From a virus (Duplodnaviria; Heunggongvirae; Uroviricota; Caudoviricetes): DNA of 42,776 nt. Positions 39,601-42,600 of this stretch are shown here, piece after piece. Position numbers: made by a program. The stretch is taken from positions 1 through 42,776 of the IMG/VR virus record IMGVR_UViG_2874945390_000010; one strand, 5' to 3'. Position 1 is the stretch's first letter; every line of letters begins with the position of its first letter.

Positions 39601-42600
39601 CGAACCAGTAGCGCAACAGGAACCGGAAAAAGTCTGCACCGCCTGCGGTCAGAGCGGTGGCGGCAACTGCCCTGATTGTGGCGCGGTGATGGACGACGCA
39701 ACATACCAGAAAACATTCGATGAAGAGAATCAGGTTGAAGTTCAGGAAAATGATCCGGAGGAAATGGAAGGCGCTGAACATCCACACAAGGAGAATGCTG
39801 GCAGCGCTCAGGACCACGCCAGCGATAGTAAAACTGGCGAGACGGCAGATCCCTTAATTACGGTGAATGGTCATCACGAAATCACATCCACCAGCAGGAC
39901 GTGTGACCATCTAATGATCGACCTTGAAACCATGGGAAAAAATCCTGATGCCCCGATCATCTCAATAGGTGCAATATTTTTCGATCCGCAAACCGGAGAT
40001 ATGGGACCCGAATTTAGTAAGACTATCGATCTGGAAACTGCTGGCGGAGTCATTGATCGGGACACCATTAAATGGTGGCTTAAGCAATCACGCGAAGCGC
40101 AATCTGCCATTATGACCGATGAAATCCCGTTAGATGATGCACTGTTACAATTGCGGGAATTTATCGACGAAAACTCCGGTGAATTTTTTGTTCAGGTCTG
40201 GGGAAATGGAGCCAACTTCGACAACACGATTTTGCGCCGTTCATACGAACGGCAGGGGATCCCCTGCCCGTGGCGTTACTACAACGATCGCGATGTACGC
40301 ACAATCGTTGAGCTGGGGAAAGCCATAGACTTCGATGCCAGAACGGCTATTCCATTCGAAGGTGAGCGCCATAATGCACTTGATGACGCTCGTTACCAGG
40401 CAAAATACGTTTCAGCTATCTGGCAAAAACTGATCCCGAGTCAGGCTGATTTTTAATGTTCAACCCTAATTGCCGCTAACCGTATATAGTTAGCGGCGGT
40501 TATGAGATATAGCTATGAGCAGCTTATTTTTAACCGAAGATGAATTGCTAATATTAACGGGCTGCAAATATGCAAGCCACCAGCGAAAATGGTTAATGGA
40601 AAACGGGCTTCCGTTCTATACCAATCGTAGTGGCAAACCGATTGTCAGCCGGGATCTATTTACCTGCAATAAAACTTTACCACCACGCGAGGTAGAGCCG
40701 AATTTTGGTGCGATCTGATGGGAAGACGAAGGAAAAATCCTGAACACGAAAAATTACCTCCAAATGTATACCCAAATAAATATAGTTATGTATGGAAACC
40801 AACATCCAGAGAATCTGTAACACTAACCGCCATCAAGGATGGTTTAGCTGCTTTATGGAAAAAGTATGAGGAAACTGTAAATAATCGCGATCGTGCAATG
40901 ACATTCGGTCGCTTGTGGGAAAAATTCCTCGCCAGCGCCTATTACAGTGACCTCAGTCCAAGAACACAAAAAGATTATCTGCAACATCAAAAAAAGTTGC
41001 TTGCCGTATTCGGTAAGGTGCCGGCAGATTCCATAAAACCAGAACACATCCGTCGATACATGGACAAGAGAGGGGAACAGAGTAAAACGCAAGCCAACCA
41101 TGAAAAAAGCAGTATGTCCCGCGTTTACAGTTGGGGGTATGAGCGAGGGTACGTGAAGGCTAACCCATGTGCAGGTGTAAGTAAATTCAAGGCCAAAAAC
41201 CGCGAACGATATGTAACCGACAAAGAATACCAGGCAGTATTAAGCGTTGCACCTCTTCCTGTTTTTATCGCAATGGAAATTGCCTATCTGTGTGCAGCGA
41301 GGGTTTCCGATGTGTTATCGCTGAAATGGGAGCAGATTGGAAACGACGGGATCTTTATCCAGCAAGGGAAAACAGGAAAAAAACAGATAAAAGCATGGAG
41401 TCCACGATTACAGGCGGCGATCGAAAAAGCAAAACAGTTACCAACATCCGCCTATGTAATCAGCAATCAATACGGCAACCGATATATGTACAAAGGCTTT
41501 AACGAAATGTGGGTAGAAGCAAGAAATCGCGCAGGCAAAATTTCAGGTATTTTAACCGACTTCACCTTTCATGATCTGAAGGCGAAAGGAATTTCAGACT
41601 ATGAAGGAAGCAGTCGGGATAAGCAACTTTTCTCTGGTCACAAAACCGAGGGGCAAGTGCTAATCTATGACAGGAAGGTTAAAGTTTCACCGACACTTGA
41701 TGTCCCGTTACCTGAAAATATTCCAAGAAAATATTCCAAGTAATTCCAAGTGTGATTTTTGTCACTGACTTAATGATGTATAATTGATTGAATTTTGGCG
41801 GAGAGAGGGGGATTTGAACCCCCGGTGGAGTTGCCCCCACTCCGGTTTTCGAGACCGGTCCGTTCAGCCGCTCCGGCATCTCTCCGTTCAGATGGTTGCC
41901 ATGATGCCAAGAAATTTGGCATTTTAACAGTCCCTGTCCGTGCAATTTTGTTCAAGTGACGAGTTTGCGAGCAAAACGATGATTAAGTGGCCCTGGAAAG
42001 TACAAGAATCAGCACATCAAACTGCCCTTCCCTGGCAGGAAGCACTATCGATCCCCCTTTTAACGTGTCTGACGGAACAGGAACAAAGCAAATTAGTCAC
42101 TCTTGCCGAACGTTTTTTACAGCAAAAGCGGCTTGTTCCTTTACAGAGCTTTGAACTGGATTCATTAAGAAGCTGCCGGATAGCACTTCTATTTTGCCTA
42201 CCCGTTCTGGAGTTAGGACTGGAATGGCTGGATGGTTTTCATGAAGTCTTAATTTATCCTGCGCCATTTGTGGTCGATGATGAATGGGAAGACGATATCG
42301 GTCTGGTGCATAACCAACGTATTGTTCAGTCAGGTCAGAGCTGGCAGCAAGGGCCTATCGTTTTGAACTGGTTGGATATACAAGATTCTTTTGATGCTTC
42401 TGGTTTTAACCTGATTATTCATGAAGTCGCTCATAAGCTGGACACCCGTAACGGCGATCGCGCCAGCGGAGTTCCCTTTATTCCGTTGCGTGAGGTTGCT
42501 GGCTGGGAACACGATCTTCATGCTGCAATGAACAACATTCAGGAAGAAATCGAATTAGTTGGCGAGAATGCGGCGAGCATTGATGCTTATGCTGCCAGCG

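Follow-up and report, generated by a model that had tools for sequence, protein, structure and literature searches.

Attachment-site evidence for a lambdoid cdtABC prophage integrated in the serU tRNA gene of Shigella boydii

The virus record IMGVR_UViG_2874945390_000010, a 42,776-nucleotide (nt) stretch of DNA referred to here as the window, ends on its right side in an integrase gene, the serine tRNA gene serU and the host gene mtfA. We place a probability of about 0.92 on the reading that this junction is attR, the integrase-proximal end of a 42.2-kb lambdoid prophage that carries the cytolethal distending toxin genes cdtABC and is integrated in serU of Shigella boydii. The window corresponds to CP026836.1:1527406-1570181, a record listed as S. 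boydii in PMC12817139. One locus of this source genome (L005), retrieved through the exact CdtC protein of the window's left edge and taken as its reverse complement, has 0 mismatches to window positions 1..10573 over 10,573 overlapping bases, and the right end of the window matches a second locus of the same record (L014), retrieved through the exact MtfA protein, at a fitting distance. The features around the junction, in window coordinates, are the following.

40515..40718, plus strand: putative excisionase, 67 amino acids, DUF4224 (Pfam PF13986, E 2e-15; PHROG phrog_1266 'excisionase', E 3e-21)
40718..41743, plus strand: integrase, 341 amino acids, tyrosine type (Pfam PF00589, E 3e-11; also PF22022 and SAM-like N-terminal domains)
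41720..41750, plus strand: three direct copies of ATTCCAAG (at 41720, 41733 and 41743), proposed arm-type integrase sites, from sequence repeats
41744..41795, no strand: phage-derived spacer of 52 nt between the integrase stop codon and the attachment (att) core, from alignment with MG1655
41796..41857, no strand: 62-nt att identity block as present at attR, spanning the tRNA gene from its 3' end (CCA) into the anticodon stem, of which it takes in the 5' half, from alignment of attR, attL and MG1655
41796..41885, minus strand: serU, tRNA-Ser(CGA), 90 nt, intact (ARAGORN)
41827..41838, no strand: the two att mismatches, 41827 G (host A) and 41838 C (host T), from junction and empty-site alignments
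41839..41857, no strand: interval that must hold the strand exchange, ACTCCGGTTTTCGAGACCG, between the last phage-allele single-nucleotide polymorphism (SNP) at 41838 and the first difference between attP and host at 41858
41979..42776, plus strand: host mtfA, encoding the Mlc titration factor, peptidase M90 (Pfam PF06167 Peptidase_M90, E 2e-59)

A preliminary description of this DNA had marked the span 41744-41885, which takes in the spacer and the whole tRNA gene, as a site of integration into the 3' end of a tRNA-Ser(CGA), with the integrase gene ending 52 nt from the tRNA and host mtfA following it. Each of these elements is borne out: ARAGORN and the Rfam tRNA model (41799..41885, 57 bits) agree on a tRNA on the minus strand, the integrase stop codon ends at 41743 and the 3' CCA end of the tRNA gene lies at 41796, and the Pfam match to mtfA lies beyond. 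The tRNA folds as a cloverleaf with a 6-bp variable arm and belongs to class II. The position of mtfA relative to the tRNA is that found in Escherichia coli MG1655, marking it as host flank, and the region as a whole is 99.7% identical, in the best-matching genomes, to E. coli loci annotated as integrase, tRNA-Ser and mtfA. The 52-nt spacer has no homology to the empty site of MG1655 and is conserved in other serU lysogens.

The left end of the prophage lies outside the window, in which the 3' segment of the tRNA occurs only once (search with up to 3 mismatches). The direct repeat that the preliminary description expected there was found 339-400 nt left of the window's first base, at CP026836.1:1527006-1527067 (L005:10912..10973), as a 62-nt copy of the 3' part of the tRNA beside yodB. 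On its outer side this copy adjoins the host spacer between yodB and serU, followed by yodB and zinT, and on its inner side phage DNA that runs into cdtC. The distance from core to core gives a prophage length of 42,195 bp. The block shared by attR, attL and the empty site of MG1655 can be written as TGGCGGAGAGAGGGGGATTTGAACCCCCGGT[G/A]GAGTTGCCCC[C/T]ACTCCGGTTTTCGAGACCG, and attL and attR differ over its 62 nt at two positions. The comparison with an empty serU-mtfA locus that had also been proposed covered six empty sites, those of MG1655 and of five assemblies encoding an identical MtfA, all of which have yodB, serU and mtfA in succession with nothing inserted, and the window is homologous to them precisely from position 41796, the CCA end, onwards. 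The preliminary description had allowed for a boundary either within or just beyond the tRNA 3' segment; only the first part of this holds, as phage sequence reaches at least to position 41838, inside the gene.

That extent is read from the two mismatched positions, which are the two sides of a single base pair of the variable arm. The window has G-C there and MG1655 has A-U; the pair is compensatory, and both versions of the tRNA give the same cloverleaf. All six empty sites read carry A/T, including two assemblies (L022 and L023) that share a host-flank SNP with the source genome, and so does the attL of the source genome itself. G/C is found at every attR with this phage arm among the junction sequences that were read directly, namely the window, L014, L015, L017, L019, E. 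coli 113 and AF57. From this allele pattern it follows that, on the alignments, at least the last 43 nt of the tRNA gene (41796 to 41838) are phage-derived, and that serU here is, by the same comparison, chimeric, its 5' part coming from the host and its 3' part from the phage. In lysogens, phage DNA would make up the 3' two-thirds of serU. Because the last phage-allele SNP lies at 41838 and the first difference between attP and host at 41858, the alignments imply that the crossover must fall within the anticodon stem-loop interval 41839-41857, deep in the gene and not at its 3' tip.

In a set of 5,426 complete E. coli genomes, 1179 records have the exact G/C tRNA and 4161 the exact A/T tRNA; the spacer of this phage together with the core is found in 1155 genomes, and the full junction of integrase gene, tRNA and mtfA in 1093, about one genome in five. 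When spacer and core (114 nt) were counted together in bands of identity, SNPs in the spacer kept the two alleles from being told apart, and the matter was resolved by reading the sequences.

The anticodon loop at 41847-41853, in which the anticodon CGA appears as TCG at 41849-41851 of the plus strand, is flanked by the inverted repeats CCGGT and ACCG(G). Core-type sites arranged around an overlap region are a feature both of lambda-family integrases and of att sites in tRNA anticodon loops, and Williams is said to have described in 2002 an anticodon-loop sublocation of att sites in tRNA-gene integration. By analogy, the 7-nt loop would be the overlap region here and the two halves of the stem the core-type sites.

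Candidate arm-type sites accompany the core on both sides. The three copies of the octamer ATTCCAAG next to attR coincide in part with the final codons and the stop codon of the integrase gene and have no counterpart elsewhere in the window, and two more copies, one inverted and one direct, lie just inside attL to the left of the window, about 48 and about 113 nt from the centre of the anticodon loop of the attL copy. Counted on either strand over the window and 1.5 kb of its left flank (44.3 kb), the octamer thus has 5 copies, none of them more than 128 nt away from the middle of the anticodon loop in the att core beside it. We propose these repeats as arm-type sites, a case that rests on their clustering and on the comparison with related phages.

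A protein search of a phage collection returned homologous integrases, 58-60% identical to that of the window, from the phages KpF5 of Klebsiella, Chris1 of Citrobacter and ST64B of Salmonella. In each of these free phage genomes a tRNA-derived core of 61-62 nt directly follows the integrase gene and ends at the same base as here, and the arm repeats are laid out in the same way, with three direct copies, one inverted and one direct. The arm motif itself differs, being TTTTCTCA in KpF5 and ST64B, ATACCAA in Chris1 and ATTCCAAG in the S. boydii prophage. Because the layout is conserved while the motif co-varies between phages, the repeats are read as arm-type sites; such a pattern would be expected if each phage's arm sites evolve together with the N-terminal domain of the integrase that it encodes. 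The cores of KpF5 and Chris1 have the host allele (A/T), and that of ST64B follows another tRNA-Ser sequence variant. The annotation of ST64B describes its integrase as similar to that of CP-933U, a type that we count with the serU lambdoid prophages of E. coli; a literature search for the integration site of ST64B found nothing. The attP of the S. boydii prophage is a reconstruction from attL and attR, and is expected to read ...TTGATTGAATTT, followed by the 62-nt core with G/C and then by ATGATACAGAGTCG...

The number of 13-nt arm repeats varies. E. coli 113 (L028, NZ_CP028680.1) has a single copy of the unit GAAAATATTCCAA, of which the window has two at positions 41714-41739, leaving two arm sites instead of three and shifting the end of the integrase frame to give 344-345 amino acids instead of 341.

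The integrase aligns with lambda Int (PDB 1z1b; phmmer E 8e-13) from residues 1-313 to residues 1-338, an alignment that takes in the N-terminal arm-binding domain with its motif MGRRR..LPPN(L/V)Y and leaves the homology beyond doubt. The second catalytic arginine (Arg-II) is supposedly invariant in tyrosine recombinases. The canonical catalytic set is incomplete in the window's integrase, in which R195, K218, H285, H308 and Y317 are present and the Arg-II position is occupied by K288 (codon at about 41579-41581), which aligns with the catalytic Arg311 of lambda (FHDLKAKGISDY in the integrase, FHELRSLSARLY in lambda). Lysine stands at this position in all 18 aligned members of the family, which come from across the Enterobacterales and include proteins with as little as 56% identity. 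A discussion of lysine in place of Arg-II was not found in one survey of tyrosine recombinases (PMC8138268), in what was a shallow check of the literature. Upstream, the stop codon of the open reading frame (ORF) for the DUF4224 protein overlaps the integrase start codon, and the family annotation makes this small protein the likely excisionase.

These features indicate how the junction most likely arose. The phage attP carried a 62-nt copy of the 3' portion of the tRNA, from the anticodon stem to the CCA end, and the lambda-type integrase encoded beside it recombined this copy with serU by strand exchange in the anticodon stem-loop. The tRNA gene thereby stayed intact, with at least its last 43 nt now phage DNA, and the host 3' part was displaced by 42,195 bp to the other end of the prophage, beside yodB. 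A heterobivalent integrase would most likely bridge the ATTCCAAG arm repeats and the core sites in the inverted repeat of the anticodon stem, as lambda Int does, with directionality supplied by the small DUF4224 protein encoded upstream. The cleavage positions, the binding of integrase to the repeats, the role of the excisionase and the present-day competence for excision are all parts of this scheme that we infer from sequence. Clean junctions in about 1100 genomes and the existence of free phages with homologous int and attP lend indirect support to activity in integration and excision.

Several observations weigh against this account or limit it. By number, the three copies of ATTCCAAG in the window are not significant against the 1.8 expected. 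The attL of three other cdt prophages (L004, L006 and L007) carries G/C, which makes the allele an imperfect marker of phage or host origin; attL has A/T in the cdt prophages L002, L005, L008, L009 and L010, and the three exceptions may go back to gene conversion or to a renewed integration at a site that had been converted before. The lysine at the Arg-II position may mean a chemistry different from that of lambda Int, and the insertion of an IS4-family element and the fragmentation of the tail-tip gene J raise the prospect that the prophage may no longer be mobile. These last observations bear on the possibility that it is now grounded, a defective remnant without the ability to excise, and the junction a historical scar, which we regard as unlikely but as the most serious of the alternatives. 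It would account for the transposase gene at 6658..8004 and for the occurrence of J in three ORFs, and it has a parallel in E. coli O157:H7 PV15-279, in which the same int at serU has been destroyed by IS1203; the Lys at the catalytic Arg-II position could be taken in the same sense. However, neither the ORF for the integrase (341 amino acids) nor that for the excisionase is truncated, the two att cores have been kept intact, as have the five arm repeats, and defects in tail genes do not prevent excision. Lys288 is moreover unlikely to be a mutation of decay, since it is conserved throughout the family, isolated phages included. The further idea that the lysine-bearing integrases are a natural, active variant of the active site, and/or that the change from A-U to G-C brought to the variable arm by lysogeny is functionally relevant, is one that we hold to be quite doubtful; the long variable arm of tRNA-Ser is recognised by seryl-tRNA synthetase.

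The remaining alternatives concern the place of the crossover and the origin of the tRNA gene. Were the crossover at the T-loop or at the 3' CCA end, the differences in the variable arm would be host polymorphism or later mutation, and two findings would fit, the CCA end as the exact point from which the empty site is homologous and the presence of G/C in three attL copies elsewhere. This is highly improbable, as the identity block extends over 62 nt to the anticodon stem and stops at the same base in free phages, in their attP. G/C moreover goes with an occupied site, both in all the junctions that were read and in the genome counts, and the close relatives L022 and L023, which have the same MtfA and flank SNP but an empty site, carry A/T. 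That the tRNA-Ser could be a phage-borne gene and not host serU is brought to mind by the prophage's own tRNA-Met at 26220..26295, but it is refuted, and left with next to no probability, by the collinearity of the 5' part of the gene and of everything to its right with the empty locus of MG1655; the attP of the related phages, too, holds only the 3' 62 nt. Integration of the cdtABC prophage into host serU, with exchange in the anticodon stem-loop, remains our preferred reading.

An integration system of this kind is already known, and the present example is an ordinary one. The serU gene has been reported as an integration locus of lambdoid prophages in Shiga toxin-producing E. coli O145:H28 (PMC7067040), as the site of prophage PP_SE11-6 in the commensal strain SE11 (PMC2608844), and as the site of the TcpC island in uropathogenic E. 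coli strains (PMC7545054, PMC3155842). The serU lambdoid prophages of E. coli share with that of S. boydii the site between yodB and mtfA, the junction of int, tRNA and mtfA, and the gene order int, xis, exonuclease, whereas their cargo and structural modules differ, cdtABC being adjacent to attL here. For the SE11 prophage a duplication of 77 nt is given (PMC2608844), as against 62 nt here. The Sakai prophage Sp10, considered as a further serU prophage, was rejected, as it uses the Rac site in a paper that makes no mention of serU (PMC2669165).

The resemblance to phage lambda includes homology over the full length of the integrase, clusters of arm repeats on both sides of the core, three tandem sites in the arm beside the 3' end of int, and a putative xis gene upstream that overlaps int. 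Unlike lambda, which has a 15-bp core between gal and bio, the S. boydii prophage targets a tRNA gene with a 62-nt identity block, has Lys at the equivalent of Arg311, and encodes as its candidate excisionase a DUF4224 protein that is not lambda Xis. With integration of the tRNA anticodon-loop type it shares an identity block that reaches from the anticodon stem-loop to the tRNA 3' end, an int gene beside the intact tRNA, a displaced 3' fragment at the far end, and a symmetric stem available as core-type sites around a 7-nt loop, and we see no material difference from that type. Our results fix the exact ends of the cytolethal-distending-toxin prophage in S. boydii, with attL at 1527006-1527067 of the genome record and attR at 41796-41857 of the window. 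Their practical value lies in annotation, the understanding of tRNA-targeted integration being unchanged, and the G-C or A-U pair of the variable arm offers a simple marker of the current occupancy of serU by this phage family.

Several phage records were considered as sources of a working attP and rejected. A near-identity search of the phage collection for a free phage with the exact integrase gave only two records, both of which contain the whole tRNA and thus look prophage-derived, with host flank and no attP. Three further records, SerU-LTIIb, ev099 and mEp332, matched the 62-nt block. The SerU-LTIIb record covers part of a prophage and includes a real attL. In ev099 and mEp332 the match belongs to an attL-like junction that includes host spacer from between yodB and serU and lies at a distance of 2.4 kb from an integrase of another kind. 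This fossil serU attL (ev099, L012:2400-2720, LR597635.1; mEp332, L011:2230-2550, PV340541.1) joins the 62-nt tRNA fragment to about 100 nt of the host spacer, and is separated from the unrelated integrase by genes for an AraC-type regulator and for transposases; its structure is evidence, at the level of sequence, of what would be an old imprecise excision.

The rest of the prophage holds the following features.

1-2215, minus strand: cdtC-cdtB-cdtA cytolethal distending toxin operon, the outermost cargo
2631-2829: IS009 RNA (Rfam and ARAGORN, as for the other RNAs below)
6658-8004, minus strand: IS4-family transposase gene between lom and the tail-tip gene J
about 8108-11519, minus strand: J gene split into three ORFs (346, 139 and 655 amino acids)
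25869-26059: STnc100 RNA
26220-26295: tRNA-Met
29585-29755: sok antitoxin RNA
36521-36572: DicF RNA
37552-37595: perfect tandem duplication of the 22-nt unit ACCGTCCTCCGTATCCTGTCAT

The cdt operon is located between the attL arm and a tail-fibre assembly gene, and the best match of the left 6 kb of the window among complete E. coli genomes is only 93% identical. From the state of its genes, the prophage is probably defective for making particles.

Around the tRNA, a scan for promoters and terminators gave nothing useful, and inspection by eye of the conserved 15 nt beside the core for a site of integration host factor showed only a partial match to the consensus. In E. coli CREC7837 (L030, NZ_CP200274.1), a different element abuts the 3' end of serU and encodes a DUF6387 protein and a helix-turn-helix regulator, with no adjacent int of the present family; the tRNA there has the A/T allele, and about 15 nt beside its CCA end resemble those of the phage arms. 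To the right of the window, CP026836.1 encodes a second integrase (L014:4136-5398) of 420 amino acids with a P4-type arm-binding domain, directly after mtfA and at the place where MG1655 has asnT, which suggests a second island integrated at the neighbouring tRNA, beyond mtfA.

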